A DNA stretch of 64,000 nucleotides from Clostridiaceae bacterium (lineage in GTDB: Bacteria; Bacillota; Clostridia; Clostridiales; Clostridiaceae), in contig JBFNFA010000002.1 in NCBI GenBank assembly GCA_040797845.1, positions 9,809 to 73,808 of the forward strand. Reading direction: 5' to 3'. Below the pieces are notes generated by a model. The model did not search any database. It was not told the origin of the DNA and saw only the letters and a list, made by a program, of their open reading frames with translations. The translations under genes were made by a program, and so were the position numbers. Below are positions 7,282 through 33,404 of the stretch, in pieces. Within the stretch, counting starts at the first letter, position 1. Each line of letters opens with the position of its first letter.

Positions 7282-7336
7282 GGGACGGGTCGTGAAAAAT
7301 AGGCATTAATTATGCCTATTTTTCATGACCCGTCCC
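7282..7336. repeat. Inverted pair of REP-like cores forming a long hairpin between convergent genes
   Basis: GGGACGGGTCGTGAAAAATAGGCA pairs with TGCCTATTTTTCATGACCCGTCCC across a short AT loop; starts 4 nt after the LTA synthase stop. Confidence 0.85.
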
Positions 7337-7396
7337 TATTGTTTTTAACCAAATAATATAAATAATTCCTATTTATGTATGATGATTTACAACATA

Positions 7397-7425
7397 ATAC
7401 CCCGTAGATTATATCTACGAGGTAT
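7397..7425. terminator. Intrinsic terminator-like hairpin downstream of the MCP gene
   Basis: ATACCCCGTAGAT-TAT-ATCTACGAGGTAT. Confidence 0.55.
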
Positions 7426-7444
7426 GGTTTACTTTTTATATATC

Positions 7445-9151
7445 TTATATCTTAAATTTAACTACTAATTCTCTTAATTCTTCAGAAATTTTTGCTTGAT
7501 ATTCTGCAGTAGTTTTTACTTTATCCATGTTTTCTGTTGTCTGCTCTACATTGGCTAAAATCTCTCCAGTAAAGGAAGCATTGCTTTGTGCACTACTAGC
7601 TATTTCATTTATTGCTGAACTTATTTGTTCTACTGTAGCGTTTATTTCCTCAGTCATAGAAGCTAAATCTTGAGACATATTATTTAAATAATCAGCGTCA
7701 TCACTGTACTGATTTCCTATTTTTATAAAGAACTCGAATTTTTCTTTTACTTGATTTTGAATAAAATCTAATATTTGTTGACTACTTTGTGATAAATTAG
7801 TGAAAGCTTCCTGTACTCTTCCTATGGTGATATGTATTGTAGCAACAGCTTCACTTGATTGTTCAGCAAGTTTTCTTACTTCCTCAGCTACTACAGAGAA
7901 TCCCTTTCCATGCTCTCCTGCCCTAGCAGCCTCAATTGCTGCATTAAGCGCCAGTAAGTTGGTCTGTTCAGAAATATTAGCTATAGTATTTGCCATAACT
8001 TTTATTTCTTCTACCACTTTTCCTTCCTCAATTGCTTTTAGAATATCTTTTTCATTTTCAGAATACATTTTATGAGTTTCATCATAGGCACTTTGTCCAT
8101 TTTTTTCGGCTTCTACTGCCCTCTCTTTTATCTCAATGGCATAACCACTTCCATTAACTGCTCTTTTTGATAATTCTTCCACACTTGAATCAACCTGGGT
8201 CATGGAAGCAGACATTTCTTCTGTAGTTGCACTCCACTCCTGAACTCCTTTATTTATCTCAATAGTTGAAGCGTTGATATCATTCATGCTTTCTGTCAAG
8301 TCTTCAACGGTAGCAAAAAGTTCTTCACTTGATTCAGATACATAATTGGAATCTTTAATTATTTTTTTAATTAATTTTTGCATATTATCTTTTGCATTAT
8401 TTAAAGATAGGGCGGTTATTCCAAACTCATCTTTTCTTTTAATTTGAATATCAGAGGAGAAATCATATTGAGAAAGTCTCTTAGCAAAATCTTGGATTCT
8501 ATTTAAAGGTTTTATAATATCAATACTCATAAGCACAATGAATATTATAGAAATTACTCCCCCTAGAACTGTAGCAATATTTATTAAATTTCTAGCTGCT
8601 AAATATATAGTTTCATTATTTTCATATTGCTTTAATGCCTCTAAATCATTTACTTCTACAACTTTATTTACACTATTAAAAGCATCTTCTCTTAATTTTA
8701 TCATCTCCGAATTATACAAATTAAGAGCTTCTTCATATTTATTTTCTTCCATAAGTTTTACTAACTGATTCTTATAATCTACATACACTTCATATTTATT
8801 TTTAAATTCTTCATAGAGCAACTTCTCATCTTCATTCATGTGAATTTTTTCATAAATTTTTAGTTGTTCTCCAATTTCTTCTTCTATATTTTTTAGTTGT
8901 TCACTACTTTCTGCTGTATTTTTTTCTAAAATTAAATATATTATATTTGCTCTCATATCATTAAAGCTTCCTTTTATATTTTCTAAGGATTTTATACTCT
9001 TTAAATTATTAGAATACATATTTTGAGCATTTTTATTAATGATATCTGTTCCTCTAATTCCCAAAAATCCTGTTACTATGACTAAAGCCGCAATAAGAGC
9101 AAAGCTAAGCAATAATTTGATTTTTACGCTAATATTTTTCCAAAAATTCAT
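7445..9151 (-). CDS. Methyl-accepting chemotaxis protein (4HB sensor, HAMP, MCP signal)
   Basis: Two TMs, [50 protein letters not shown]. Confidence 0.95.
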
Positions 9152-9190
9152 GTATAACCATTCCTTCCTTTGTAATTGTCTAATATCTTG

Positions 9191-10018
9191 TTAAATTATC
9201 AGTTGTTTTAAATCCTCTTTATTTATGGGTTTGCTAAAGTAATATCCTTGTACTTCATCACAATTAAATTCTCTTAAAATTTGTAGTTCTTCCAAGGATT
9301 CAACTCCTTCTCCTATAACTTTTAATCCCAAAGAATGAGCCATTTCAATAATTTTTGATACAATTATTTGTTGCTTCCTATCTACTTGAATTTTATCAAT
9401 AAAATGCTTGTCTATTTTTATAATATCTATAGGTAATATATTTAAATATTTAAAAGAGGAGTATCCTGTGCCAAAATCATCTAAAGCAATTCTAATTCCC
9501 ATTTTTTTTATCTCATTTAAAAGTTTTACCGTCCAATCAATATTTTTTACAGCAGTGGTTTCTGTTATCTCTATTTTTAGTCTCTCTGCACTTAGCCCAG
9601 TTTCATTGAGTATTCCGCTGATCCATGAGACAAAATTTAAATTTTCAAATTCTCTACTAGATATATTCACTGCTAAATTTAGATCCATTGACTCAATATC
9701 CAAAAATTCATTAGCTTCATAGCAAGCTTTTTTCATAATGTAATTGCTTATTTCAAATATTAAACTTGATCTTTCAGCTAAGCCTATTATTTTGTTTGGA
9801 GGTATATTTTTAAAATTAGAATTCCCCCATCTTAACAGGGCCTCAATGCCAACTATTTTTTTGCTTTTTAGTTCTATTTGAGGTTGATAATATACTTGAA
9901 ATTCTTCTTTTATCAGCCCTATTTCTATATTTTTTATTATATTTTTTTCCCAATTCTCTTCTAAGAATTTATCTTGTTGAACTTTAGTATAATTATCCTT
10001 TTGTAAACAAATTGCCAA
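9191..10018 (-). CDS. Stand-alone EAL c-di-GMP phosphodiesterase
   Basis: YQPQ, EALLRW, AVNIS, EITE, DDFGTGYSS, KIDK, EGVE, QGYYFSKP; AGAGGTG SD before TTG. Confidence 0.92.
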   Translation of the reverse strand: MAICLQKDNYTKVQQDKFLEENWEKNIIKNIEIGLIKEEFQVYYQPQIELKSKKIVGIEALLRWGNSNFKNIPPNKIIGLAERSSLIFEISNYIMKKACYEANEFLDIESMDLNLAVNISSREFENLNFVSWISGILNETGLSAERLKIEITETTAVKNIDWTVKLLNEIKKMGIRIALDDFGTGYSSFKYLNILPIDIIKIDKHFIDKIQVDRKQQIIVSKIIEMAHSLGLKVIGEGVESLEELQILREFNCDEVQGYYFSKPINKEDLKQLII

Positions 10019-10205
10019 TTAAATGTCACCTCTTTTCATCAAACATAAATTTATACCTACTATTGGTAACTACTATATGCTATTATTTTCAATTTATTAA
10101 AATAATTGTAAATAATAAATGAGCCCGTACAAAGTAATAATTACACTTGCACCGGCTCACTTCTGGACAAAGTTTTTCATTTTTACCCCTCCATTAGCTT
10201 AACCA

Positions 10206-10547
10206 TTATATAATTTTTAGTATTATCTCCATATAGTCTTCATGAATGTTTTCATCATTAAAAGCTATGTATACTTCCTTAGATAAAATTTGAGATATTT
10301 CCTGTTCTATCTCCTCTGTTAGTATGGGAGTTAGTCCTTGTCGAAAGAATTTTACTCTTTCATAATTTTTTTCTCTTTGTAGAGCAGTTTTTTCAATCTG
10401 TGAAAGTATTCCTTTAATGTAGATATTAATATTATTCTCTTTAATATCTACTCTAGTCTTCTCTGGTCCCTTTCCTACGACCTTCTTAATTATACCAGAA
10501 ATACAACTTTCTACAATGTAATTTATCTCTTTTCTTGCAGCAAACAA
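10206..10547 (-). CDS. DUF2294 / MpsC-family small protein
   Basis: KKVVGKGPEKTRVDI..IYIKGILSQIEK pattern; AGGAGGTG SD 6 nt before TTG at 10547 (track start 10556). Confidence 0.65.
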   Translation of the reverse strand: MFAARKEINYIVESCISGIIKKVVGKGPEKTRVDIKENNINIYIKGILSQIEKTALQREKNYERVKFFRQGLTPILTEEIEQEISQILSKEVYIAFNDENIHEDYMEIILKII

Positions 10548-10877
10548 TATTATCACCTCCTTTCCATGTAATCAACGCCTCCTTTTTTCTTATATCTCTT
10601 ATATTTTTTATATTACCTATAATAATACATAAAATTATATTTTATTATTATTTATTTGAATATATAGTATTAAATTCATATATTTGGTATATATTTGGCA
10701 TATTATTTCCAATATATTAATTATATTGTATATCCCCTTAATTGTTTTTTCAATATTTCTCATATTATTGCAAATATATTCATAAAGTTACATTTGCCTA
10801 TGAAAGTGCAATAAAATAGGTCTAAATTATAATTTTTTATAACTTAGACCTAGATTAGACCTATATTTAGGTTATAC

Positions 10878-11630
10878 CTATCTTCTATTTATAACCCTCA
10901 TTTTTATCAAATTATTTCTTTCATTGGGTGTCATTTCATTTATTTTTTTAAACTTATATCCATGGGCTTTTAAATGCTTAATAGTGCTATCTAAAGATTC
11001 TACTGTGGTAGTTTTATAATAACTATCATGCATTAATATTACAGCTAAATTTAAATCTGCGCATTGGTATTTTATATTATTATTTAAAATATTAACTGCA
11101 ACTACTCCACCTTCTGCATCCCCTGAACTAACATTCCAATCTATATAGTCAATACCCTTTGCATTTAATTTATTTCTTATAGTTCTCAACACTTCCGAGT
11201 TAGATACAAGATTATCAGACCCACCTGGCAATCTTGTATAGTTAATTACATCTTCCCCTGTTATGTTTTTTATAGAACTAATACATTTGTTAAGATCATT
11301 AAAATAGCTTTCTGAATTGTTATATATAGTTCCGTAGCTATGTGAATAAGTATGAGGGAGTATGCACATTCCTTCTTTATATAATTTTTTTGCTATATGA
11401 GGATAGCTTTCTACGGAAGTTCCGATTACAAAAAAAGTTGCTTTTACATCATTATCTTTTAGTATTTTTAGTATTTCAGGAGTATTGTTTGGCGAAGGTC
11501 CATCATCAAAAGTTAAAAAAACTACTTTTTCTTTGGTAATATTATGGGCCATTACTTTATTACTACCTATAGTTGAATAGATACTCATTAAAATTAATAC
11601 ACAAATAAGGAAATATTGATTCTTTTTCAC
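10878..11630 (-). CDS. Polysaccharide deacetylase (NodB homology), secreted
   Basis: LTFDDGP, ATFFV, HTYSH, RLPGG, DWNV, ILMHD. Confidence 0.92.
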   Translation of the reverse strand: MKKNQYFLICVLILMSIYSTIGSNKVMAHNITKEKVVFLTFDDGPSPNNTPEILKILKDNDVKATFFVIGTSVESYPHIAKKLYKEGMCILPHTYSHSYGTIYNNSESYFNDLNKCISSIKNITGEDVINYTRLPGGSDNLVSNSEVLRTIRNKLNAKGIDYIDWNVSSGDAEGGVVAVNILNNNIKYQCADLNLAVILMHDSYYKTTTVESLDSTIKHLKAHGYKFKKINEMTPNERNNLIKMRVINRR

Positions 11631-11720
11631 ACTAGCACCTTCTTAAAATATAATCTACCTTTTAATAATAGATTAACCTCTATTTCCTCATTCATGCTTA
11701 GTAATTGAAGGAAATTATTA

Positions 11721-14321: not shown

Positions 14322-14400
14322 AATAAGCACCTCCATTTTATATTGCATATTTTTTATTTTATATTTTTATTTTGCGACCTTTAAGTTTTAACTGGATTAA

Positions 14401-14562
14401 TCAGGGACGGGTCATGAATTTTCACTAACTATTTAATTATTATTTTGCTCATTTATTTAATTTACTCACTTATATTTTATTGATTTTTTATTAGTTTTCA
14501 TGTCAATTTTCATGACCCGTCCCTGAAATATACTTATATATTCATGACCCGTCCCTGAATAT
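14401..14562. repeat. Cluster of three REP-like copies in the clpB upstream region
   Basis: TCAGGGACGGGTCATGAA (14401-14418) and its exact reverse complement at 14509-14526 and 14541-14558. Confidence 0.9.
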
Positions 14563-14601
14563 TTTCATGTTTTAAACATCTCTATTTTTTTATATAACAT
14601 T

Positions 14602-14618
14602 GGTCAAAGAAAGTCAAA
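14602..14618. promoter_or_regulatory. CtsR operator overlapping a probable sigma-A promoter of clpB
   Basis: GGTCAAA-GAA-AGTCAAA is an exact RGTCAAA-NAN-RGTCAAA match; on the minus strand TTGACT-17-TATAAA overlaps it. Confidence 0.88.
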
Positions 14619-14633
14619 GTCTAATTTACCCTG

Positions 14634-14680
14634 AAAAAATAGAAAACCCTTGCATTTTATAGCATAGGTTTTCTATTTTT
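14634..14680 (-). terminator. Terminator after the XRE-TPR genes
   Basis: AAAAAATAGAAAACC...GGTTTTCTATTTTT inverted repeat with A/T tails. Confidence 0.6.
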
Positions 14681-14713
14681 AGAGTTTTTTATTAATTGCT
14701 TCAAATTTCTCTA

Positions 14714-15964
14714 TTATATAGTTTTACTAATATTTAATGCTAAACTAAAATATTTTATAGACTCATTTATGTTTTTCATTTTATAGTACATATGCCCCAT
14801 TTCCATGTATCTTTCATATACCTGCCTTTTTGCTCCATACTTCATTAAGGCATCTAATGATAAATTCATATACATTTCTTTTGAAGAAAGATCGCCTTTC
14901 TTGCCTAATATAAGAGCTTTTAAGTGATAAGCTTTTTCTATATATCTCATATCTTTTAAATTTATAGCATAGTTTATTGCCTCATCACTTATTTTTTCCG
15001 CTTCTTCAATTATATTGTTATCTATAAGCTCTTCTATACATTTAAGCATATATTTAACTAAAATTTCCTCTTCTTCACTTGGACAATAGGTTAAACCTTT
15101 TCTAATATATTCAACTGCTTTATCCTTTAAATTTAGAGTAAACATAGCTTGAGCATAGTTAAATACAGCGTTAGCTATATTTATCTTATTTTCACCATAT
15201 AATTCATAAGCTTTGTTCTCGTAGTGCTGAAAATCATCTTTATTATTAATTAAAGTTAAGAGTGCCATCATATGAAAGCTTTCTGCTCTCTTTAAGTCAT
15301 CATTAAAAAAAGTTATTAAATCCATAAGTCCTTTAGCTACTTCATAAGCTATGTCATATTGCTTTGCCATTATATAACAATGGCATTCGTTAAATGTTGC
15401 TCTTGTTATAAATTCATTATCCTTTCTTTTTTTAGCCTCTTCTTTCACTGTGTTGTAATACCCTGCTGCCTGCATATATTCCTCGGAACAATAAAAATAT
15501 TTCGCTATATCCATATAGTATATCAATTGATTTTCATCGGATTTTGATTTTAAACAAGTATCGTAATACTTAGACATTAAAACTTGGAGTTTCTCATATC
15601 TTTTCATTTTGATATTGTAAACAAACATCAAATGCATAATTTCAAAGGCTTCTTTATAATATCCATACTCTTCTGCGTAAGATAAATTGTATATAAGTTG
15701 TTCTTGATAGTCGTTTCTATCTAATTTTTTTAGTCTCTCTAAGTTTTTATTAATTTGACTTCTCACATCATCCTTTAAATAATCTATATCTAGATCTAAC
15801 TTCTTTGACAAAAACTTCAATATCCATTCCTCTGGCACAACCTTATCATTTTCTATACAGCTCATTTTGGATACGGAAATTTTATCTTCACATATATATT
15901 TCAGGGTATATCCTTTATATATCCTAGCTCTTCGGATCTTTTCACCAGTAGAAAGTATCTCCAT
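14714..15964 (-). CDS. XRE-HTH + TPR transcriptional regulator (RRNPP-like architecture)
   Basis: GEKIRRARIYKGYTLKYI..ISVSKMSCIEND HTH followed by helical TPR-like repeats. Confidence 0.85.
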   Translation of the reverse strand: MEILSTGEKIRRARIYKGYTLKYICEDKISVSKMSCIENDKVVPEEWILKFLSKKLDLDIDYLKDDVRSQINKNLERLKKLDRNDYQEQLIYNLSYAEEYGYYKEAFEIMHLMFVYNIKMKRYEKLQVLMSKYYDTCLKSKSDENQLIYYMDIAKYFYCSEEYMQAAGYYNTVKEEAKKRKDNEFITRATFNECHCYIMAKQYDIAYEVAKGLMDLITFFNDDLKRAESFHMMALLTLINNKDDFQHYENKAYELYGENKINIANAVFNYAQAMFTLNLKDKAVEYIRKGLTYCPSEEEEILVKYMLKCIEELIDNNIIEEAEKISDEAINYAINLKDMRYIEKAYHLKALILGKKGDLSSKEMYMNLSLDALMKYGAKRQVYERYMEMGHMYYKMKNINESIKYFSLALNISKTI

Positions 15965-15982
15965 AATTCTTCACCTATCCAT

Positions 15983-17287
15983 TTAACACTCTTTTATTAT
16001 TCCTAACTTTTTAAAGACTTCAACTCCATAATTTAAATATTGTACAGCCTCACTTTCTTTACCATAATCTATATAAAATTTTCCTATCATAATTGATATC
16101 TCTGCCGCTTCTTTTAAATAATTTATATTTTTAACAAAGTTTAAAGCCATTAGTAGGGAACTCTCAGCTTCCTTTAAGTCTCCTTGCAACATATGAACTC
16201 TATATTTTAATAAATAGTATTGTATTAATGCACTATTATCTCCATCTTTCATACTTTCTATAATCTCATCTAGGGTTGTCTTAGCATTTTTTACATCTTT
16301 TAGTTTAATGTAATTTTCACATATATTAACTAAAGTTTCAATAAGCTTTGAATCCTTTATATTTCTTCTTATTTCTTTTGCCTTATTTAAATGAATAAAC
16401 GATTCTTCTATATTATCAAATTGATAGAATAACTTTCCTAAATTATTTTCAATTTGAGCAACATAAACTTCATCATTTATTTCTTTATATAAAGCTAGCG
16501 TTTTTTTAGAATATTTTATGGCATTATCTATATCGCCCTTTTTATTATATTGTTCTGATATCATTAATAACGTACTTGCATAAGATTTTTTATCATCAAT
16601 CTGTTTGAACTTTTCCTTTGCTAGAAATGAATAATCTATGGCTTTTCCAACGTTTTCTAAAGCATATTGAACATTTGCCATGCTATAATAAATTTCTCCT
16701 AACAAAAAGTCGTTACCTATATTATTATCAGTATAAACCTTTTCAGCCTGTTGAAAATAGCTTGCTGAAGAGTGATATGCTTTTAGTTTTAAAGTTATCT
16801 TACCTAAATTTACAAAGGTATTTATTATTTCTTCATACCTATTTTCTTTTATAAAAATTACATTAGCAGATAAGAAAAATTGTTGAGCTATGGTCATTTC
16901 ACCTTTATTCATGTATATTGATGCTCTTAGATAAGAGATTCTAGCCTTTCTATAATCTAAATTATATTTTTCCGCGTAAAAAAAGGCCTGTTCAATATAT
17001 TGTTCTCCTAAGCAAAAATCCTTATTTAATATGTGTGATTCAGCTATGTTCTCATAATAGGTGCATATTTTTTCTGCTTGCGTCTCTTCAGATTCCATTA
17101 AATACTCTACTGTAGTATTTAAGGCCACAGCTAAATACTCTAGTAAATCCATACTAGGATTAGATTTACCTGATTCTACAAGACTTATTTGGCCCGGAGT
17201 AATCCTATCACCTGCTAAATCTTTTAAAGTCATATTCAGTTCTTTTCTTGTTCTTTTAATTTTTTCACCTAGTGACAATATTTCCAT
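15983..17287 (-). CDS. XRE-HTH + TPR transcriptional regulator (RRNPP-like architecture)
   Basis: GEKIKRTRKELNMTLKDLA..ITPGQISLVESGKSNPS HTH plus TPR repeats. Confidence 0.88.
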   Translation of the reverse strand: MEILSLGEKIKRTRKELNMTLKDLAGDRITPGQISLVESGKSNPSMDLLEYLAVALNTTVEYLMESEETQAEKICTYYENIAESHILNKDFCLGEQYIEQAFFYAEKYNLDYRKARISYLRASIYMNKGEMTIAQQFFLSANVIFIKENRYEEIINTFVNLGKITLKLKAYHSSASYFQQAEKVYTDNNIGNDFLLGEIYYSMANVQYALENVGKAIDYSFLAKEKFKQIDDKKSYASTLLMISEQYNKKGDIDNAIKYSKKTLALYKEINDEVYVAQIENNLGKLFYQFDNIEESFIHLNKAKEIRRNIKDSKLIETLVNICENYIKLKDVKNAKTTLDEIIESMKDGDNSALIQYYLLKYRVHMLQGDLKEAESSLLMALNFVKNINYLKEAAEISIMIGKFYIDYGKESEAVQYLNYGVEVFKKLGIIKEC

Positions 17288-17529: not shown

Positions 17530-17535
17530 AATACG

Positions 17536-19539: not shown

Positions 19540-21294
19540 ATGAGCAAAATTAAGCAAAAGCATATATATATTCCTATAATTACAGCGGTTATATCCTTAA
19601 TGTTATTAGTAGGAGTAAACTTCATTTTTAAATCTACAGGTAATAAAAGTTATACAGAATTTTTAGCAGATCTATCAAATAAAAAAGTATCTACAGTATA
19701 TCTTACAAATACACCTACCATTAAAATTAAGCTAACAGATGGTAAAATATATGAAACAGATAATCCTAGAATGGATAACTTTAAGGAAACTATGTTAAAG
19801 TCAGGAGTGAAGGTTTCGGAAAACGCACCTTCAAACACTGTTAATATTGTTTTTACGTCAGCCTTTATGATTTCAATAATTTCATTGATAGTTGGATTGG
19901 TTAAATCATCAAATATAGCTTCACGAGGAATGCTATCCGTAGATTCTCTAGACACTTCTGCTACAGAAGATATACCTTTTAATTTTAATAATGTAGCTGG
20001 TAATGAAGAGGCGAAAGAAAGTGTTATGGATGTAGTAGATTTTATAAAAAACCCCGAAAAATATAGTTCCTATGGTGCAAGAATGCCTAGAGGGGTCATA
20101 TTATATGGCGAACCTGGTACTGGAAAAACTCTTTTAGCTAAAGCTGTAGCTGGTGAAGCTAATGTTCCTTTCTATGCCATGTCAGGTTCAGATTTCGTAC
20201 AAGTTTATGTAGGGGTTGGTGCTAGTAGAATAAGACAGCTATTTAAAAAGGCAAGAGGTCACGGAAAAGCTGTTATCTTTATAGATGAAATTGATGCCAT
20301 AGGTAAAAAAAGAGATAATTCAAAAAATGGTGGATCTGATGAGAGAGATCAAACTTTAAATGCCCTATTAACTGAAATGTCAGGTTTTAATGAAAAAGAA
20401 GGGATAATAATTATGGCAGCAACGAATAGATTAGACATGCTAGATGAAGCCTTATTAAGACCAGGTAGATTTGATAGACATATTGAAGTGTCACTGCCAG
20501 ACTTAAGTGCTAGAAAAAAGATTTTATCACTTCATTTAAAAAATAAACCAACAAATAATATAGATATTGAAAACTGGTCACATAAAACTGCTTATTTCTC
20601 AGGTGCTAAACTAGAGAGTCTTGTAAATGAAGCTGCTATAATTGCTTGTAAAGAAAATAGTTCCTTTATTGAAAATTCACATTTAGATAAAGCTTATTCA
20701 ATAGTTATGGCAGGATATGAGAAACAAAATAGGGATTATATAAAGGAAAAAGATAGAGAGATAACAGCTTATCATGAAGCGGGACATGCCTTGGTATCAC
20801 TTAAAGCTCTTCCTAATGAAAGAGTTGATAAAGTAACAATTATTCCAAGTACTAAAGGAGCAGGTGGGTACACTATAAGTATACCTGAAGATAGCATGTA
20901 CCAAAGCAAAGACTATTTAGAAAAAAGAATTATGGTACTGCTAGGTGGAAGAGCTGCCGAAGATTTGAAGTTTGGACAAAACTCAATAACTACTGGTGCG
21001 CATAGTGACTTAAAACAATGTACTAATATAGCCTTCCACATGGTAACACAATACGGAATGGGAGAAACTTTAGGTTTACTAAATATGCAACAGCTAATGG
21101 ATCTTAATATAAATCAAGATAAAATAATACTTGAATGCAAAAATCTTGTAGACAGGTTATATGAAGAAACAAAAGAGCTTTTAGCTAAAGAAATATCCTC
21201 TCTAGAAGAAATATCTACAAAACTTCTAGACAAAGAAACCCTACACCATGATGAATTAATGAGGATAGTTCACACATTTTCACCTCTAAACTAA
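19540..21294 (+). CDS. FtsH-family ATP-dependent zinc metalloprotease (paralogue)
   Basis: Two TMs, [26 protein letters not shown]. Confidence 0.92.
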
Positions 21295-21316: not shown

Positions 21317-21402
21317 GGGGACAGTTCACTCATTTTTAACTAAGTTCAATAAAATAAACAGAGAAAAAACAGGGGATTTGAATGAACCGTCCCCTGTTTT
21401 TT
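21317..21402. repeat. Two REP-like cores; the second sits in a bidirectional terminator-like hairpin
   Basis: GGGGACAGTTCA (21317-21328); AAAAAACAGGGGA...TGAACCGTCCCCTGTTTTTT (about 21364-21402) between convergent ftsH and rhomboid. Confidence 0.8.
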
Positions 21403-22573: not shown

Positions 22574-22589
22574 TTCATGACCCGTCCCC
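22574..22589. repeat. Single REP-like copy
   Basis: TTCATGACCCGTCCCC followed by AACTTC, the same flank as the copy at 33389-33410. Confidence 0.8.
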
Positions 22590-22658: not shown

Positions 22659-22667
22659 ATTCTTATT

Positions 22668-23726: not shown

Positions 23727-23894
23727 GATTATTCTCCTTAAAAATAACATTTACATAAAAACAAGCATACTAATACTGGTTTAGTCATCTAACTATGATA
23801 ATAACATAGTGCATTCATGAAATAAATACAAAATTAGAATAATTTTGTCAAAAATATTGTTCAATTGGCAAAATAATTATAGGTAATACACACA

Positions 23895-24287: not shown

Positions 24288-24453
24288 TTAAACTCCTCCC
24301 TTCTATAAATAATTTACTTTTTACCATTTTTTGTATATAATGTAATTGTATATTTATAATAAATATTATATATGTAATTAAACACAATTTATTTATCGTA
24401 GTAAATAGAAATTTATTAAATACTTGCAAATATTTTATCACGAGGTGACTTCA

Positions 24454-24807: not shown

Positions 24808-24810
24808 TAG

Positions 24811-25230
24811 TTATTCTTTAACTAGGCAATCTTTGCAGACTCCTTTGAACTTTACATTAACCTCTTGTTCAGCTAGGGTAAATCCTGTTTTATTTTTAAT
24901 AATTTGTTCTAATTGTTGAATTGGGCAATCAATTTCAACTTCTTTATGACAAATAGTACATTCTAACAGATGGGTATGTTTATTATGATTTATTATATAA
25001 TTATATTTACCATCTCCAATATCAAATTTATCCACAATACCTTTGTTGTTCAACAATTCTAGATTTCTATAAACCGTAGATAAATCAATATTACATCCAT
25101 TATTCTTACACTTATCATGAATGTACTCAGCTGTTACCCCAACACTGCAATCTTTTAATACTTCAACTATTTTTATTCTTCCTTTTGTTATCTTAATATT
25201 ATTTAATCTTAGAAACTTATCTATGCTCAT
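24811..25230 (-). CDS. Fur-family transcriptional regulator
   Basis: KITKGR, LSTVYRNL, HTHLLECTIC, GVCKDC. Metal specificity cannot be assigned. Confidence 0.9.
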   Translation of the reverse strand: MSIDKFLRLNNIKITKGRIKIVEVLKDCSVGVTAEYIHDKCKNNGCNIDLSTVYRNLELLNNKGIVDKFDIGDGKYNYIINHNKHTHLLECTICHKEVEIDCPIQQLEQIIKNKTGFTLAEQEVNVKFKGVCKDCLVKE

Positions 25231-25292
25231 ATTATCACCTTATACTTATAATAAATTATTATATCATAAATATACTATATTAATCCTAATTT

Positions 25293-25844
25293 TTAAAAAA
25301 ACATCATTCTAATACCAAATAAAACCAAAATTATTCCTCCAATATAGTCCGCATACTTGCCAATCAATTCAATTCTCCTTAAATATTTAGTTATAAAAAA
25401 TGCCAATATTGTATTTACTAAAGTAATTAGGCCAATAATCAAAGTGCTGTTTAGCATTGTAATCTTATTACTAATATTATTTAATGCGGTAAATCCAACA
25501 ACTAAAGCGTCAATACTTACAGAAATCCCAAGAACTACCCACATCCCTGGTTTTACAAGGGTACACTCATCTTTATTATCCATTCCTTCTTTTATCATAA
25601 GAACACCCACTATGGATATTACAATTCCACCAATTATTTGTGGCATTGATACAATGTATTTATTGAAAAGAAAACCTGCATATGCTCCTATAAAAGAAAA
25701 GAAAAACTGAAAAAAACTAAAAGATAAAGAGCATAATATTTTGTATCTAATATTTACATTTTTATTTAAGCCAACACACAAGGCCACGCCAAAAGCATCT
25801 AATGATAGAGCTAATCCAATTAAAAATATTGAATAAAAAGTCAT
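25293..25844 (-). CDS. mntP: Manganese efflux pump MntP family
   Basis: LALSLDAFGVAL and GISVSIDALVVG duplicated motifs, six TMs. Confidence 0.82.
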   Translation of the reverse strand: MTFYSIFLIGLALSLDAFGVALCVGLNKNVNIRYKILCSLSFSFFQFFFSFIGAYAGFLFNKYIVSMPQIIGGIVISIVGVLMIKEGMDNKDECTLVKPGMWVVLGISVSIDALVVGFTALNNISNKITMLNSTLIIGLITLVNTILAFFITKYLRRIELIGKYADYIGGIILVLFGIRMMFF

Positions 25845-25865
25845 GACAAACCTCCATATGTAAGT

Positions 25866-27186
25866 TAGGGACGGTTCACACCAATTCCCTATTTTTTATC
25901 CTTTATATTTTACCACTTTTAATATATTGTTTAAATATATTCATTATGTCTATAATTATTAATGTCAATTTAAAATAAAATATACTTTAAATAAATAGAA
26001 AGGATGAAATAATTTGCCTAGAATTCCTAGAGTAAAGGTAGATAATGGAATATACCATGTTATAATGCGTGGACCTAAGGAAATAAATCTATTTAGAACT
26101 AAAAATGATAAGGATAAATTCCTTACTATATTAAGAAAATATAAAAATATATTCTTATTCGACGTACTTGCTTACTGTTTAATGGATACTCATATTCATC
26201 TATTGATTGATCCTAAAAATGCCGATATTAGTATGTTTATGAAATCAATTAATCAAAGTTATGCTCAATATTACAATAGAATATATGATAGATGTGGTCA
26301 TGTATTCATCGACAGATTTAAAAGTTTTGTAGCTTTAAAAGAAGAACAGATAGTTTCAATGTCAGCATATATACATAATAACCCTAAAGACATAAAAGGG
26401 TACAATAAGAGTGTTGAAAACTATGGCTATTCTAGCTTTGGAATATATATTGGCAAAACTAAGGATGAACACCAAATTATTAACTGCAGATTTTTATTAA
26501 ATTATTATTGTAAAGACCCAATTCAAGCTGCACAGCAATATTACTCCTATGTTAAAAATAGATGTACCGATAGAGATCAGTATATTCAAGATATCCTTGT
26601 AAATTTAAATGATAAGCTAAATTTAAAGTACAATTTATCTAACGATATCTCTTGTTATTATAGTGGAATAAAACCTCTGATTAAAGATATAACACCTGAA
26701 GAAGTTCTCAATTTCTTTTTTAAAGAATGCAACTTAGACAATACTCTCTTTAATATTAAATACAATAGAAAAATATCTAACTATAGAGCAATTATTGTTT
26801 TAGTACTGAGATCTTTTTGCAACTATACCTTTCAACAAATTTCTAATATAATAAATAATTTCACCCATTCATCTTTATCGCGGTTATGTACTAAGGGATA
26901 TTTCCTCATATCAAATGACAAATATTATAAAAATATAATAGATACCTTCTTAGAAAAATATTCTATTAATTATGATTATAAATATAGTTAATTTTTAAGA
27001 TTATGTTGTCAAAATATATACAAATAAATCATTATTGTACAACCTATAAAAATCTATAAAAACTATAAATATAAAATAAAGTTAAACTATTGGAGCATAA
27101 TAAAAAACAACTCATAAATTAAACTTGATTAGTCTAATTTATAAGCTGTCATTTATTAACTTTTTATAATTTATGAACCGTCCCTA
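25866..27186 (+). mobile_element. RAYT-REP module: HUH Y1 transposase gene bounded by a perfect 13-bp inverted repeat
   Basis: TAGGGACGGTTCA (25866-25878) and TGAACCGTCCCTA (27174-27186) flank the Y1 transposase gene. Confidence 0.75.
26014..26991 (+). CDS. REP-associated tyrosine transposase (RAYT, Y1_Tnp/HUH) with C-terminal helical DnaA_C-like domain
   Basis: MPRIPR, YHVIMRG, AYCLMDTHIHLL (HUH), YAQYYN, GHVF.DRFKS, YIHNNP (catalytic Tyr), YSS; extra ~120-aa C-terminal region. Confidence 0.9.
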   Translation: MPRIPRVKVDNGIYHVIMRGPKEINLFRTKNDKDKFLTILRKYKNIFLFDVLAYCLMDTHIHLLIDPKNADISMFMKSINQSYAQYYNRIYDRCGHVFIDRFKSFVALKEEQIVSMSAYIHNNPKDIKGYNKSVENYGYSSFGIYIGKTKDEHQIINCRFLLNYYCKDPIQAAQQYYSYVKNRCTDRDQYIQDILVNLNDKLNLKYNLSNDISCYYSGIKPLIKDITPEEVLNFFFKECNLDNTLFNIKYNRKISNYRAIIVLVLRSFCNYTFQQISNIINNFTHSSLSRLCTKGYFLISNDKYYKNIIDTFLEKYSINYDYKYS

Positions 27187-27190
27187 ATTC

Positions 27191-28033
27191 TTAATTAGCA
27201 GTAAACGTTACTTTACAAGCTGATAACTCAAATTCTTCCTCTTGTAACAAATCCTTTTTGAATACTAAACTTAGAACTCTTGCCTTATTTCCATTAACTT
27301 CAAAATCTTCTAACTCAAAGGATCCTGAGAGAATTGTTTTTCCCTCTGCAGTCGATATAGTTACTGGAAGTTTTTCTAATTTTACAGACTTATTAACTCC
27401 ATTTCTAACTATTAAAGTCATCAATAAATCATCATTTTGATATTGTGTTATAGTAAATACTGAAACACTAACTTGATTACGTTCTAATTTAGGCAAAGTT
27501 TTTATAAACTCTCTAAAAGTATTCGCTTCCTTCTCATCTAATCCTTCTGGAAGTTCTTCCAATTCAACATTTACATAGCTTACAGCTTTAATATTATCAT
27601 CAAAAACAATTTTCCAATCGTCTTGTGAGATTTCATCTACAGATACATTTTTCTTATCAAAATATATCTTCCAAGGTCTAGCTGAATAAGAAGGTATATC
27701 TCCCATTGCATTTAAATCAAAGATTTGATATGCCAATTGCTCTCCCTTAGAATTAACTATACAAAGAGGAACTTTATCTAAGTTTATTGCCTTTTTTAGA
27801 CCATTTACTATGTATATTTTTGCTTCAAATTTATCTCCATCATCAAAAATGTATACACCTGATACATTAACCTGTCCATCTTCTATTTGAGGTATTACTT
27901 CATTCATTTCATCTTCAAGATAATTTTTTTGAACATCAGATATCTTATCAAGAGTATCTTGATTTAATGAAAGCTGGATTTTTAATGGATCCATCTTGTT
28001 CATTTTTTGTGACCCGTCCCCATTATTACTCAT
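27191..28033 (-). CDS. SLAP-domain protein (S-layer assembly type, two repeats)
   Basis: Two similar halves (NGLKKAINLDKVPL..LA...FDL / NGVNKSVKLEKLPV..IL...FEL), YSARPW; GGAGG SD at ATG 28033. Confidence 0.75.
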   Translation of the reverse strand: MSNNGDGSQKMNKMDPLKIQLSLNQDTLDKISDVQKNYLEDEMNEVIPQIEDGQVNVSGVYIFDDGDKFEAKIYIVNGLKKAINLDKVPLCIVNSKGEQLAYQIFDLNAMGDIPSYSARPWKIYFDKKNVSVDEISQDDWKIVFDDNIKAVSYVNVELEELPEGLDEKEANTFREFIKTLPKLERNQVSVSVFTITQYQNDDLLMTLIVRNGVNKSVKLEKLPVTISTAEGKTILSGSFELEDFEVNGNKARVLSLVFKKDLLQEEEFELSACKVTFTAN

Positions 28034-28076
28034 TATTTGTCCTCCAATTCTATTACTACTATTCTATCTACATTCA

Positions 28077-29138
28077 CTAGTCTATACTAATTATTTCTAA
28101 ATCTTCTTCAGACGCTTCTTCTGCTATCTTATTTAATCTTGTTTCAACATTTTGTGATAACACACCAGTTTGTCCTATTAAAACTATATTTGAGCTCTTA
28201 TTTATATTGTTTTTTATAAACATTTCATATGAAAGCATATCTTCTTGAGCAGCTATGTTTCCACTTAAAACTAAAGGAGAACCGTCCTTAGCTGCTGCTG
28301 CTGAAGCTACTAATGCATCTGCAAAGTTCTTAACTCTATCATTACCGCCAGATGCTACATAAACCTTATCAAAAGAAATATCCTTTTTAAAATATTCTAG
28401 AACGCTTAAATTAGTTTTAAATCTATCCTTACCTTGAGCTATTCTATTACCATTAACTGAATTTATTATTGAATCTGGTAATATTCCGCTTCCACCAACG
28501 GCCATTACCTGTAATTTGTTATCATCAATTACTTTTTTAACTGCCGGATTTAATTTCTTTGAGTCAGATATTAATACTGGTACTCCTAATTTTGCTGCAA
28601 TTGACGCAACACTTAGAGCATCTGAATATCCATCTTGTCCATTAACTAATATAGCTTTATTAGCTCCAGTTAACTTTATTAATTCAGCTGCTACAACCGC
28701 ATTAGTATCGAATCTATTACCACCAGCTTTATGATGACGAACTACATTAAGATTATTTGATTTTAATGTAGAAAATATTGAGGCGCTAACAACTCCTTCG
28801 CCACCAACTATGTAAACATTTTTAGCTCCTATCTTTTTAATCGTCTCTAAAACACCATTAGGTAATTTATCTTTCTTAGTTAACAATATAGGCGCATTTA
28901 ATTGTTTTGCAAGTGGAGTAGCGCTAACAGCATCTGCATATCCTTCTCCATTTACTAAAACTACATTCTCACTGCTGCTAAACATGCTTTCAGCAACGCT
29001 TATTGCCGTTGTAAATCTATCTTGTCCACCAATTCTATTTACTGAAGCCGCAAATACACTAGTGGAGTTTAATACAGTTGATAAAATTAGCCCCATTGCA
29101 GCAATCTTTGCCATTTTGCCATATTTCTTTTGTATCAT
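28077..29138 (-). CDS. Cell-wall-binding repeat 2 (CWB2) protein
   Basis: Signal peptide; RIGGQDRFTTA, YADAVSA, PILLT, three repeats; AGGAGG SD puts the start at 29138. Confidence 0.9.
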   Translation of the reverse strand: MIQKKYGKMAKIAAMGLILSTVLNSTSVFAASVNRIGGQDRFTTAISVAESMFSSSENVVLVNGEGYADAVSATPLAKQLNAPILLTKKDKLPNGVLETIKKIGAKNVYIVGGEGVVSASIFSTLKSNNLNVVRHHKAGGNRFDTNAVVAAELIKLTGANKAILVNGQDGYSDALSVASIAAKLGVPVLISDSKKLNPAVKKVIDDNKLQVMAVGGSGILPDSIINSVNGNRIAQGKDRFKTNLSVLEYFKKDISFDKVYVASGGNDRVKNFADALVASAAAAKDGSPLVLSGNIAAQEDMLSYEMFIKNNINKSSNIVLIGQTGVLSQNVETRLNKIAEEASEEDLEIISID

Positions 29139-29269
29139 AATTCTCCTCCTAACATCAATTTTCATATTATCCATTATATTATAACATAGGAATTTATATA
29201 GACAAAGTTTCATAATAGAATATATTAATAGTTAATTAATGAATATGAGTAATATTTTTACACTTTTTA

Positions 29270-29998
29270 TTAGTATGAAGTAATATTTAGCGGTACATCG
29301 TAAGAATTATTTGATATATTTAATGTTGTTCTGCCTATTATTCTAGCTCCATCAATGCCATAAAAATATATCTGAACACTTGTCTTATCATTAATTACAT
29401 TTAATGATGGTTCACCTATATCAAATAAATGGTCATTTCCTTCTACCTTATACTTTCTTATATCATTTCTAGTAGTAGCTGTTATATTTATCGCCTTAAA
29501 AATATCCAATACTGGTGATACTTCTACCCTTGCCATAGCTGTATTCTCGCTTTGAATAGAAAATCTCATAATATTGTCTTTAGTTAAAAACTTTCCATCT
29601 TTTCCTTGAGCACCTTTTCTAACAGTTATTTGATATGTCTGTCCTTTTTTATAGCCACCTTTTGGCGGAATTATTTTTACAGACATATTATCATTTTGCT
29701 CAATACCTACTGGAACAGAACTACCTAAAATATTGTTATTAACTTCGTTTACTTGAATTCTATCTTTTACAGAATAAAATTCTACCGATGAATTAAATTT
29801 AATAGTCCAAACTTTATTCGTATCTGTTGTAGCTTTATTAAGCACCTCTTTTACTGTCTCTTCGTTGTTCGCTGCATAAACTACTCCTGATTTTTTATTT
29901 ATTAATCCATTAGGTAAATTAATCTGAACCGTCCCTAATATTAATACGAATAAAAATAAGACAAGTTTTTTATATTTCATATTTTTTTTCAAATTCAT
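29270..29998 (-). CDS. Secreted Ig-like domain protein (SbsA/Big_5-like)
   Basis: Signal peptide; NKVWTIKFNSSV, IIPPKGGYKKGQTYQITV. Confidence 0.75.
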   Translation of the reverse strand: MNLKKNMKYKKLVLFLFVLILGTVQINLPNGLINKKSGVVYAANNEETVKEVLNKATTDTNKVWTIKFNSSVEFYSVKDRIQVNEVNNNILGSSVPVGIEQNDNMSVKIIPPKGGYKKGQTYQITVRKGAQGKDGKFLTKDNIMRFSIQSENTAMARVEVSPVLDIFKAINITATTRNDIRKYKVEGNDHLFDIGEPSLNVINDKTSVQIYFYGIDGARIIGRTTLNISNNSYDVPLNITSY

Positions 29999-30021
29999 GC
30001 TTCCCTCTCCTTTCTATGTAT

Positions 30022-30141
30022 AATTAACAGAAGGAAAGTTCGCGAACTGTCCCTGACTTTTCTAAACTTTCCTCTGTTAATTCTTCAATTAATTATCACA
30101 AATTCATGAACCGTCCCTAAATTTACATGAACCGTCCCTGA
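30022..30141. repeat. REP-like cluster with an enclosing 18-19-bp hairpin
   Basis: Cores at 30044-30056, 30103-30118, 30126-30141; arms 30022-30040 and 30065-30082 enclose the first core. Confidence 0.85.
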
Positions 30142-30251
30142 ATTTATGAACTCACTAAGCTTTGAACTTTGCAACAATAATTATAACATTCATTTAAAAA
30201 TATGAATACTATATTTGTTTAATAAATAATAATGATGTTTGTACATATTTA

Positions 30252-33176
30252 TTAACGATAATTTACATAGCCAGCTTTAAATGCTTTACCATTATAAGTG
30301 TTAACAACATATACAATGTCTCCACTAGTTAAATTTTGACCTTTAATTCTAGGATTATCTTTATCTATAGTTGTCCATCCATCTGATACGCTTGCTCCTA
30401 ATACTGGCAGTCTTTCTTCTGGTATCTCATCGCTTCCAACTCCGCCTTTTACAACTTTATATTTGTACTCATATTCTGGACTTATAAACGGATTTAATCC
30501 TTCTGCTATTACAGTTAAATCATTTGGATCTCCTATAACATCCAATCCTTCTAATGGTAATGCTATACCTTGTGGTATTTCTATACCATTAGAATCTTTA
30601 CTTTCTGCAAGTTGAGTACTTCTAGTAATATATAATCTTCCATCGCTACTATTTGCTAAACTTTGAGCAGAAAGGTCTATAGTTGCCTCGCATTTTATGT
30701 CAGCCCATATATCAGAATCATATACCGGCGTACCTATTCCATATCCTATTCTTTCATATCTTTGATTATTATCTTTGATATAAACATTTACCATATCTCC
30801 AGCCTTTAAAGTAGTATTTGGCATGATCTTAACCTTACTATTTACTGTGTAGCCGTCTTGCATTATACCATATTTAATTATTTTAATTAAGCTCTTGTCT
30901 ATACCATCAGGTACTCCAACTAAATCATCTTCAGGTTTTATCGTGCATACTGTTGGTGCACTTTCTATCATATTTTGAGAAGTTCTAGTTACATATACAG
31001 CTGTTGCATCATCTGGCAATGTCTTATCTTTTCTAAGTATTATTGTAACATTTAATTTATCATCAATTGACGGGAATACAACTTCTTGTCCAAGTAGCTG
31101 AGTCATATTCTTATCTCTATATACCTTTATAACATCTCCTATTTGTAAGTTAGCTTGTATAGGTGTACGTGTTCCGTCTTTTTCTATATTTACAAATATC
31201 TTATCCTCCGCTAAGCCAGCATTATTTACAACCCTTACAGATTCTGAAGGAATAGACTCACTTGCCATAGATAACACCAATGTAACTTTTGCACCATATC
31301 CAACAATAACACCAGTGTAGCTAGCTGCCCCACCTTTACCATTATTTTTAGGATTTAAATCCCAGTTAACCAAAAGTTCTCTTACACTGTTATCACTCAT
31401 TACAGCTGTAACTTTATCTGGTAAATATTCTTCTAAGTTATTTATATCCGCTCCTATTGCATCCTTCTTTGGAGTAGCAACCTTATCATAAGATATTATT
31501 TTTAAATCTCTCTTAGGTTTTACTAAAGGAGTAGATGAATATGTATATATGGCTCTTCCATAAGGATCTCTATTTGGAGAAATCTGTGGCTCATTAGCAA
31601 TTGACATATTATTTCCTTTAGTGTAATAAATTTTATCATCCACTATGTTTATAAAGTTAGCATAGTCATTTGAATATTTTTCTCCAGTAACTTTTAAATA
31701 ATTCGTTAATGGTGCTCTATATATTTTATTTCCATCTGAAGCATCTGTATAATAGATGTAGTTGTTACTACTACTGCTTGCTTCCGACACATTCATAGTT
31801 GTTATAATAGCGTTTTTACCAGTAGTACCGTTAGTTACTGAAATATCAGCTACATTAGATCCACTTTTATTCATAGCCTTTAACTGTCCAGAATCTGTTA
31901 TGTAATAAATTTTATCATTTCTTTCTGAAAGTGTTATAAACTTTGCTCTATCGCTAGAGATTTTACTTCTATAAGTTCCATCTGTATGAACTGAATATAT
32001 AGAATTTCCTTCGCTCTTATTTACAAAGTAAATTATATCCCCACTTATAGTTAAATATTCAGCCTCGTCATTTGTTATATTAATACCTGTTGATTTATTG
32101 GCATTTTTGCTAACCTTTTTAATATTTCCAACGCCTCTTCCTGAGTGATAAGTATAATAAATATACTCTCCTGAAACTGTTAAATAAGAAGCCTGGTCTG
32201 TACTTACTATTCTTCTTCCTGTACCATCTTTTTTAATCTTATAAATTTTTTGGCCATCTGAGTAGTTAACGTAATAAATATAATCTCCAACAACATTTAT
32301 AAATTTAGCATTATCTTCACAGATTTTTTCGCTAATAACATCATTAGTCTTGTAAATTCCGCCTCCGTCTGCTGAATGACTATAGTATTTCCAACCCCCA
32401 TCTTGAGCTATTAATCCGTTATTATTTAGATTTCCTAATCCATTTCCATTTTTTCCATTATATGCATTTTCCGGATTAGAATTTTCTAAATTGAAAAATT
32501 GTACTGTTGTAATTCCCTCTTTTAATTCAACAATTTCTGTAGTTGCTATAGGTGACTTATCCGAAGTTAATATTTGAATTTTTATCTTTGGATCTGTAGT
32601 CAATAAGTTAATTGTATAATCGTCTTCTTGTCCCTGCGGAATCTTACCTATTTTTTTAACTAAATCACTATTGTTCTTATTTATAACTTTAAAATACTCT
32701 CCCTTTAAACTGCTTGGAGATAAATCCATCTTATCCTTATCTGGTATAGTTATACTCATCAGCATTAAACCACTATTTCCAAGTTTGGTCACCTTACTGC
32801 TTATCTCTAGCTTTACTGTCAGATTACTATCTGCCAAATAATCTCCATTTGATTGTTTTTTATATGGTACTTGTTTTCCGTTTGATACATAATGAGTTAT
32901 AATATCCTCACTTACATATCCTGAATCTCCTGGCTTTAAGTCACCGCCTTTAAACAGTGAAGTTATTGTCCCTGAACTATCTTTTACATAATAAAGATCC
33001 TTATAGGATGAATTGTTTAAAATATCATTAAATTGTTTCGCATTATTAGTTATATATTCTACGCTATATGATTTATTTCCAATAACTATAGCACCATAAG
33101 GTAGTGCTGCTGAAACAGAAGATGACAACATTGTAGCTAAAACTATGGAAGCCACAAAAACCTTTGTTTTTTTCAT
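30252..33176 (-). CDS. Large secreted DUF5050 beta-propeller protein with Big_4-like domain
   Basis: Repeats DNAKFINVVGDYIYYVNYSDGQKIYKIKKDGT; LPDKVTAVMSDNSVRELLVNW; start MKKTK at 33176. Confidence 0.85.
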   Translation of the reverse strand: MKKTKVFVASIVLATMLSSSVSAALPYGAIVIGNKSYSVEYITNNAKQFNDILNNSSYKDLYYVKDSSGTITSLFKGGDLKPGDSGYVSEDIITHYVSNGKQVPYKKQSNGDYLADSNLTVKLEISSKVTKLGNSGLMLMSITIPDKDKMDLSPSSLKGEYFKVINKNNSDLVKKIGKIPQGQEDDYTINLLTTDPKIKIQILTSDKSPIATTEIVELKEGITTVQFFNLENSNPENAYNGKNGNGLGNLNNNGLIAQDGGWKYYSHSADGGGIYKTNDVISEKICEDNAKFINVVGDYIYYVNYSDGQKIYKIKKDGTGRRIVSTDQASYLTVSGEYIYYTYHSGRGVGNIKKVSKNANKSTGINITNDEAEYLTISGDIIYFVNKSEGNSIYSVHTDGTYRSKISSDRAKFITLSERNDKIYYITDSGQLKAMNKSGSNVADISVTNGTTGKNAIITTMNVSEASSSSNNYIYYTDASDGNKIYRAPLTNYLKVTGEKYSNDYANFINIVDDKIYYTKGNNMSIANEPQISPNRDPYGRAIYTYSSTPLVKPKRDLKIISYDKVATPKKDAIGADINNLEEYLPDKVTAVMSDNSVRELLVNWDLNPKNNGKGGAASYTGVIVGYGAKVTLVLSMASESIPSESVRVVNNAGLAEDKIFVNIEKDGTRTPIQANLQIGDVIKVYRDKNMTQLLGQEVVFPSIDDKLNVTIILRKDKTLPDDATAVYVTRTSQNMIESAPTVCTIKPEDDLVGVPDGIDKSLIKIIKYGIMQDGYTVNSKVKIMPNTTLKAGDMVNVYIKDNNQRYERIGYGIGTPVYDSDIWADIKCEATIDLSAQSLANSSDGRLYITRSTQLAESKDSNGIEIPQGIALPLEGLDVIGDPNDLTVIAEGLNPFISPEYEYKYKVVKGGVGSDEIPEERLPVLGASVSDGWTTIDKDNPRIKGQNLTSGDIVYVVNTYNGKAFKAGYVNYR

Positions 33177-33300
33177 TTGAATCCACCTTTCCAAATATTC
33201 ATATTTATATATTTTAAAATTGAAATTTATGAATTGCCCTAATTTCCACTAATCTTTCTTAATTTTAATTCCTTATTAATACCCAAATTTTCACGAAATC

Positions 33301-33404
33301 TTCACGAACTGTCCCTGATTTCTCCCTAATCTTTTTAAACTTTTTTAAAAGACGGTTCATGATTCTTACCACAGACTTTTTATCAATTTTCATGAACCGT
33401 CCCC
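33301..33404. repeat. REP-like cluster between surface-protein genes
   Basis: TTCACGAACTGTCCCTGA (33301-33318), GACGGTTCATGA (33351-33362), TTCATGAACCGTCCCC (33389-33404). Confidence 0.85.

Follow-up and report, generated by a model that had tools for sequence, protein, structure and literature searches.

The closest described relatives of the element treated here are the TIRtrons and their TIRYT genes, named by Di Nocera, De Gregorio & Rocco (2013, BMC Genomics 14:522; PMC3733652). According to the main text of that paper, TIRYT genes are flanked by terminal inverted repeats (TIRs) sharing GGGGWSAS, copies of which occur singly, as dimers and in groups. Quentin et al. (2018; PMC6006769), in their passages on the class, equate TIRtron/TIRYT with TnpA_Y1 subclass 2.1, whose members have Bac_DnaA_C/helix-turn-helix (HTH) tails; in those passages, the survey found no repeats near subclass 2.1 genes. 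No experimental study or biochemistry of the TIRYT/TIRtron class was found in the part of the literature on the class that was covered. Further systems for comparison are the repetitive extragenic palindromes (REPs) and REPINs with their REP-associated tyrosine transposases (RAYTs) (Nunvar 2010; Bertels & Rainey 2011; Ton-Hoang 2012, structure 4ER8; Corneloup 2021, PMC8266576). Here we describe a TIRtron in a 64,000-nt stretch, hereafter the window, of contig JBFNFA010000002.1 (assembly GCA_040797845.1, positions 9,809 to 73,808). The genome is that of a Clostridium close to C. mobile MSJ-11, which is cultured and has the same locus at 94% identity. Around a single Y1 nuclease gene a short GC-rich word recurs, and in the whole assembly it recurs nowhere else.

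The gene and the two ends that bracket it are as follows.

26014-26991, plus strand: gene, present in a single copy, for a TIRYT of 325 aa, a RAYT-like HUH/Y1 nuclease ending in a DnaA-domain-IV-like HTH, assigned by PF01797 and Foldseek
25865-25878, minus strand: left TIR of the TIRtron, TTAGGGACGGTTCA, core 25868-25877, 136 nt upstream of the Y1 gene
27174-27187, plus strand: right TIR of the TIRtron, TGAACCGTCCCTAA, core 27175-27184, 183 nt past the stop codon

The two ends form a perfect 14-nt inverted repeat containing the word, one arm on either side of the gene. An earlier note on this DNA, made from its letters alone, had alluded to a RAYT gene, and this is it. The protein matched Pfam PF01797 (Y1_Tnp) at E 2e-13 and scored 47.9 bits against the NCBIfam RAYT equivalog NF047646, below the cut-off of 80. 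Its HUH motif (H60-x-H62) and tyrosine motif (Y119-I-H-x-N(-P)) were invariant in 20 homologues, and the HUH/Tyr catalytic residues are invariant in homologues down to 30% identity. A Protein Data Bank sequence search with the protein found no match, and a fold search was therefore needed. The AlphaFold2 (AF2) model, at pLDDT 82, had 4er8_A (TnpA_REP) as its top Foldseek match (E 6e-6, TMt 0.72), and the C-terminus matched 1j1v_A, DnaA domain IV (TMt 0.79, root-mean-square deviation 2.0). The tail also matched PF08299 weakly (E 0.002), a match that is precomputed on several homologues. The gene with its bracketing ends is a TIRtron/TIRYT, of TnpA_Y1 subclass 2.1. The protein is predicted to cut or join DNA at the TIRs, of which the indel hot spot just outside the tip, described below, may be an indirect sign.

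The same genome holds a second Y1 paralogue, 35% identical and 307 aa long, at C15:42037-42948 (L017 3038-3949). The 7 kb around it contain no word copy and no GC-rich inverted repeat, only AT-rich chance ones.

The core of the repeat is the 10-nt, GC-rich word GAMCYGTCCC (GGGACRGKTC on the opposite strand). In this genome the extended consensus of the copies is ttTCATGAMCCGTCCCyrA. Allowing up to one mismatch, GACCCGTCCC gave 14 matches against 0.15 expected; 14 was reached in none of 100 shuffles. A 32-column weight matrix built from the repeat copies was scanned over the whole assembly (4.06 Mb, 33 contigs) and yielded 17 strong copies of 27-39.5 bits, all at 7.3-33.4 kb of the window. Their core starts are as follows.

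Minus strand: 7282, 14404, 21318, 25868
Plus strand: 7327, 14514, 14546, 21384, 22579, 27175, 28011, 29926, 30044, 30108, 30129, 33306, 33394

The best site elsewhere in the assembly scored only 15.8 bits. Therefore the repeat family is restricted to about 26 kb, and its copies lie only within about 20 kb of the Y1 gene. Besides the strong copies there are two decayed relics with two mismatches each (33349-33358 and 21262-21271, both minus). The observation is confirmed as real and is statistically overwhelming. The earlier note had listed 18 positions for an 11-nt core and had seen none after 33.5 kb. The word is present at all 18, although the copy given at 33351 is the two-mismatch relic at 33349-33358, and the window holds no copy beyond 33.4 kb. 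The genome-wide count that the note had proposed finds the family in only those 26 kb of 4.06 Mb. A genome-wide REP population is accordingly rejected.

We assembled a homologue set of 80 loci (1.35 Mb) from Clostridium, Caloramator, Fonticella, Haloimpatiens and others. It contained 343 word matches, against 2 for the reversed-word control, and 48 of 76 homologous genes had GGGACRG on their upstream side and CYGTCCC on their downstream side (0 for the control). The family tip is the 9-10-nt GGGACRGTT[C/A], which persists even where the proteins are no more than about 35% identical; family-wide conservation stops at the 10-nt core. Word density, whose relation to the RAYT gene the earlier note had suggested checking, declines with distance across the family loci: per 10 kb there are 10-12 words within the first kb, 2-6 between 1 and 5 kb and 0.3-3 between 5 and 10 kb. 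Whole genomes gave the same picture. C. bovifaecis has two full-length Y1 genes, and 20 of its 22 matches lie no more than 21 kb from them; of the 34 matches in C. simiarum, 23 are on the Y1 contig, between -31 and +12 kb from the gene; and Haloimpatiens has 159 matches, where each cluster among those listed holds a Y1 gene. The genome that holds the C. liquoris locus (G012, locus L022) has two genes, each with its own variant of the word: one gene's cluster is CCG in 11 of 11 copies and the other's CTG in 9 of 9. Such purity has a chance of 1 in 167,960, and each variant matches the ends of its own gene. The decay of density, the whole genomes and the private variants together establish that neighbourhood confinement is a property of the family and that the clusters derive from the local gene.

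The family data also bear on the proposal that the words are host transcription-factor operators, or attC/Xer-type sites of another enzyme, lying near a Y1 gene by chance. Their intergenic placement and orthologous conservation would suit such sites, as would the two XRE-TPR regulators and the Fur-family gene in the region. We nevertheless give the idea almost no credence: the 48 of 76 loci with inverted words on either side of the Y1 gene have unrelated neighbours, the word also sits between convergent gene ends and inside coding sequence, and no Rfam family matched in 5-36 kb of the window. No integrase or Xer-type gene was present among the open reading frames of at least 110 aa over the same 5-36 kb, ten of which were scanned against Pfam. 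The word accompanies the Y1 gene from one unrelated context to the next and therefore does not mark the regulon of a host transcription factor. Integron attC, Xer/dif and a host regulon are effectively excluded, no recombinase being found among the reading frames read and the word following the Y1 gene.

Copies are oriented as well as confined. Unpaired copies across the family favour GAACYGTCCC on the C-rich strand by 69:33 (by GC skew); in the window the nine unpaired copies all lie on the plus strand, where GC skew is negative. Copy tips also tend to face away from the Y1 gene, up to about 3 kb (loci L021-L100), with 45 facing away vs 33 towards it at 1-5 kb upstream, and 44 vs 20 at 1-5 kb downstream. 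The polarity hints at outward, one-ended copying; in the window it is inseparable from the strand bias. In the distant relative L018/L019 (G037:C3:95-132 kb) the words form nested arrays at 50-75-nt spacing, for example - - - - - + + +, each unit of which carries a GCTTGTCC-like half-word about 25 nt upstream. These arrays look like dimers inserted into dimers.

We think it probable that the word is the tip of the TIRs of the TIRtron, a 1.3-kb unit at 25865-27187, and that the nuclease has seeded it locally. The other 15 copies would then be derivatives of the TIRtron ends: solo ends, short tandem runs and gene-less end-pairs, the last able to fold as long hairpins in the manner of miniature inverted-repeat transposable elements (MITEs) or REPINs. 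End copies would be seeded into intergenic DNA and gene edges up to about 20 kb from the gene. The nuclease may recognise the 9-10-nt tip, nick just outside it, beyond GTCCC, and copy or re-join end-bearing single strands into nearby DNA, preferring sites beside existing copies. Insertion would mostly be oriented with GGGACRGTTC on the G-rich (lagging-template) strand. Each gene would thus build and refresh a private neighbourhood cluster, not a genome-wide REP population, because the enzyme is proposed to act mainly in cis. Within this scheme, catalysis at the tip, the single-stranded intermediate, the cis-limitation and the role of the HTH are parts that we infer. What the data show directly is what the gene is and how it is built, its bracketing by the word, the tip conserved across the family, the fall of density with distance, the clusters of separate variants, the indel hot spot at the tip, the strand bias and the decayed cores of a genome without the gene.

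The remaining sites in the window are as follows.

7282-7336, mixed strands: gene-less end-pair, cores 7282-7291 (minus) and 7327-7336 (plus), between the convergent ltaS-like and methyl-accepting chemotaxis protein genes
14404-14555, mixed strands: three copies in the clpB leader, 14404-14413 (minus), 14514-14523 (plus) and 14546-14555 (plus)
21262-21271, minus strand: decayed copy AGGATAGTTC encoding the FtsH C-terminal tail, intact as GGGGACAGTTC at the same place in C. mobile
21318-21393, mixed strands: end-pair, 21318-21327 (minus) and 21384-21393 (plus), between the convergent ftsH and rhomboid genes
22579-22588, plus strand: solo copy between the rhomboid and HD-GYP genes
28011-28020, plus strand: solo copy at the 5' end of the DUF7076 gene, at codons 5-8 if the ATG at 28033 is used
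29926-29935, plus strand: solo copy in the signal-peptide coding part of a 242-aa gene, encoding G-T-V-Q
30044-30138, plus strand: three same-strand copies starting at 30044, 30108 and 30129, found as matrix matches
33306-33403, mixed strands: copies 33306-33315 (plus) and 33394-33403 (plus), with a decayed inverted partner at 33349-33358 (minus)

The first end-pair folds as a hairpin with a 25-bp stem (-28.9 kcal/mol for DNA at 7276-7342, z -13.2) and is found in both congeners. Its loop is flipped in C. mobile: the asymmetric loop at window 7305-7315, CATTAATTATG, is there the exact reverse complement, CATAATTAATG (L013, about 7394-7404), and the arms retain their own asymmetry, a sign that recombination between the arms has inverted the loop. 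In the clpB leader an 18-bp stem pairs 14401-14418 with 14509-14526, and the 14546-14555 copy lies inside a 32-nt tandem unit absent from both congeners. The 30129 copy is likewise a tandem unit, of 21 nt, that C. mobile lacks. In the last cluster, where a 12-bp stem joins 33351 and 33394, copy number is 4 in C. mobile and 3 in G001. Directly 3' of the 22579-22588 core the congeners carry an insert of variable length. The site between ftsH and rhomboid is also occupied in C. mobile, G001, G002, C. liquoris and C. lundense, and that at 28011-28020 is the same in five species, with one-mismatch decay in G002, a congener that lacks the Y1 gene. The end-pairs 7282/7327, 14404/14514 and 21318/21384 have the inverted repeats, and their borders show no visible direct repeat. 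For a comparison with MITEs, no empty site exists for the end-pairs themselves.

Two host genes have the repeat close at hand. The three clpB-leader copies lie between a CtsR-type operator (GGTCAAAGAAAGTCAAAG, window 14602-14619, about 255 nt upstream of the clpB start) and the clpB start codon. In G002 the same operator is only about 70 nt from the aligned end of the clpB leader, and this reads as an empty site. Beside clpB are two adjacent XRE-HTH + tetratricopeptide repeat (TPR) regulator genes (window 14714-17287), of Rgg/Rap/PlcR-like architecture. At ftsH the word encodes the tail G-T-V-H in six species, the last ten codons being encoded by a repeat copy (window 21262-21294; L014 1301-1330). 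In species without this read-through FtsH ends …EDLNL*, and the repeat pair comes directly after the stop.

The earlier note had seen in each copy a small hairpin whose conserved 11-nt core is the loop, read by a RAYT, between short arms that vary from copy to copy yet stay complementary. Two copies do have such arms, of 5 and 7 bp (14509-14531 and 14538-14562); the arms it quoted there, ATATTCA/TGAATAT at 14538-14562 and TTTCA/TGAAA just before, are real, but they are the sole such cases and belong to the neighbouring tandem copies 14514/14546. With the 11-nt core as loop, perfect closing stems at the 17 copies measure 0, 1, 3, 5, 7, 1, 0, 0, 0, 3, 2, 0, 0, 1, 2, 3 and 0 bp, so that seven lack any closing pair. 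Mean stem length, 1.6 bp, does exceed the 0.4 bp of random window positions. When the 3' flanks were dealt among the copies, however, the observed total stem length was reached in 6.5% of trials (P 0.065 for the stem total, 0.056 for pairs and 0.58 for the number of stems of at least 4 bp). The complementarity therefore comes from the semi-conserved TTCA...TGAA consensus and not from covariation; the covariation check that the note had set itself finds arms essentially no better than dealt flanks. Single copies fold no better than shuffles (z -1.0, -1.2), and 62 end sequences from 31 other loci have no arms, their flanks differing between genera. Where the DNA does fold, the core sits in the stem of inverted pairs (7276-7342, 14404/14514, 33351/33394). 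Recognition of the core as a hairpin loop is effectively excluded, and we consider it next to impossible. The broader idea of a REP survives in part: the word is the cognate repeat of a RAYT-like gene and in that sense REP-like.

The history of the locus is one of stable position and local change. The order MntP - Y1 - DUF7076 is kept in at least nine species, and the genus has one Y1 orthologue per genome besides the 35%-identical paralogue elsewhere. Neighbouring proteins are 50-80% identical (FtsH 68-79%) vs 40-56% for the Y1 proteins; Y1 evolves faster. Some repeat copies go back as far as the locus itself, the ftsH/rhomboid site being filled throughout. Three close species (89-94% nucleotide identity) have all sites in common, and tandem copy number differs at four clusters. 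Of 28 intergenic indels of at least 4 bp between the close species, 12 touch the 13-nt stretch that adjoins the GTCCC end on its outer side; such stretches account for 4.2% of intergenic bases (P 5e-10). The 5' flank of the repeat is genome-specific, which suggests concerted change.

A natural gene loss was found in G002, which is syntenic but without the Y1 gene, about 216 bp separating mntP from the DUF7076 gene. The loss is clean (G002:C3:25730-25945; L101/L102), leaving decayed ends GGGACGGTTTGC and GAACCGTTTC about 160 bp apart, and no replacement for the lost gene is visible in that genome. In G002 just 3 of 9 orthologous cores are intact and most are decayed; it has no tandem runs, and the whole insert of about 200 nt in the clpB leader is absent. 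In this one lineage the pattern speaks more for maintenance that depends on the gene than for selection by the host on the sites.

Two explanations besides local seeding by an active nuclease need weighing against this history. In one, the cluster is a fossil: an old local burst left inert relics, the gene no longer acts, and the pattern is mere inheritance. Nearly all sites are indeed orthologous in the three species, some of them in far more distant ones, with no new-site insertion between the window and C. mobile. We hold this unlikely, since the catalytic residues are invariant, the 10-nt cores are intact amid diverged intergenic flanks yet mostly decayed in the gene-less congener, the 5' flanks look concerted, and both the gains and losses of tandem units and the indel hot spot fall exactly at the tip. 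In the other, the host keeps the Y1-HTH protein as a binder, and selection holds the sites where they are for some local use, with no selfish spread involved; that use might lie in the hairpins that follow convergent genes, in the leader of clpB or in how the DNA is organised locally. Such domestication would sit well with a locus stable in at least nine species (Y1 at 40-56% vs FtsH at 68-79% identity), with one orthologue per genome in the genus, and with copies kept at orthologous sites, even inside coding ends. It seems improbable to us, however, for elsewhere in the Clostridiaceae this gene type is multi-copy with many genes stop-interrupted, like a selfish element (15, 21 and 33 matches in G033, G035 and G036), the word accompanies the gene into unrelated neighbourhoods, and G002 lost the gene with no visible replacement. 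Nor are the hairpin dimers supported as intrinsic terminators: a consensus scan calls none of them, and there are separate terminators beside the 7.3-kb pair.

Several observations weigh against local seeding, which we nevertheless prefer. The occupied sites of the window and of C. mobile are all orthologous, tandem copy number being the one thing that changes; at that time depth, then, no genuine new-site insertion is seen. The ftsH-end copies have stayed fixed in place across a deep divergence (FtsH 68-79% identical), and long-held sites could equally be explained by selection on the sites. The earlier note had held that fixation at orthologous positions would speak for a transcription-factor site; the sites are in part fixed, but the host transcription-factor reading of them fails. 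In some genomes the gene is present but copies are scarce or absent (one in C. rectalis, none at the C15 paralogue), the strand bias is confounded with gene orientation, and the G002 comparison is of one lineage. The material for the source sample was assembled contigs (Logan), not reads, and activity of the nuclease is a prediction.

A stronger form of local seeding is that the nuclease acts essentially only in cis: it would seed, duplicate and homogenise its 10-nt word within about 20-30 kb of its own gene over very long times, host gene ends (the FtsH tail, a signal peptide, a 5' coding end) included, and the words would decay once the gene is lost. We offer this tentatively, as something we rather doubt. 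If true, it would be a distance-limited propagation and maintenance of repeats, distinct from genome-wide REP/REPIN populations, and a natural readout of how far a single-strand transposase reaches from its site of synthesis.

The confinement to a neighbourhood is the main point of interest, and it suggests cis-limited action of a single-strand DNA nuclease. TIRYT and TIRtron are a known kind (2013, 2018), to which this Clostridiaceae locus adds a very short, sharply defined recognition word. With a cultured relative, C. mobile MSJ-11, carrying the same locus, and with natural experiments in hand (clusters whose variant is particular to each gene, a congener without the gene whose words are decaying, tandem units that are polymorphic at the tip), the mechanism is directly testable. 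Annotators should be warned that such words may encode protein termini and sit in the leaders of stress genes such as clpB.

Compared with the known systems, the locus most resembles TIRtron/TIRYT. Its RAYT-like HUH/Y1 protein is longer than RAYTs and has a C-terminal Bac_DnaA_C/HTH-like domain, its gene is bracketed by TIRs instead of REP hairpins, and its end copies occur as singles, dimers and groups. The TIRtron motif GGGGWSAS is fitted at 8 of 8 positions by GGGGACAG (21318 and the C. mobile ftsH copy), and at 6 of 8 by the gene's own ends, AGGGACGG. It differs from the TIRtron as described in that the conserved part is only 9-10 nt, GGGACRGTT[C/A]. Among the species named in the covered passages of the TIRtron paper Clostridiaceae were not found, and 'Clostridium' does not occur in its main text (PMC3733652). 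The confinement of copies to roughly +/-20-30 kb around a gene, and variants particular to each gene, are likewise not reported in those passages or in the subclass 2.1 passages of the later paper (PMC3733652, PMC6006769).

As in REP/REPIN-RAYT systems, there is one Y1 gene, passed on vertically, with its own repeat in inverted copies on both sides; inverted doublets form hairpins, the system persists for long in a lineage, and 4er8 is the nearest solved fold. Unlike the 20-40-nt imperfect palindromes of those systems, the core here is a 10-nt non-palindrome, with no GTAG- or CGTC-tagged hairpin; there are 17 copies in 26 kb, not hundreds genome-wide; and the protein falls under the NCBIfam RAYT cut-off and has the extra HTH domain. 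With the IS200/IS605 elements (IS608, ISDra2), which move by single-strand 'peel and paste', it shares the HUH/Y1 fold, the apparent lack of target duplication at end-pairs, an orientation bias relative to the replication strand and, to judge from arrays and nesting, probable insertion beside a short specific sequence akin to its own end. It is unlike them in having no subterminal hairpins or conserved structure at its ends and no tnpB among the window reading frames. The gene, moreover, is single-copy (one orthologue and a 35%-identical paralogue without ends), and what multiplies is the ends and not the whole element.

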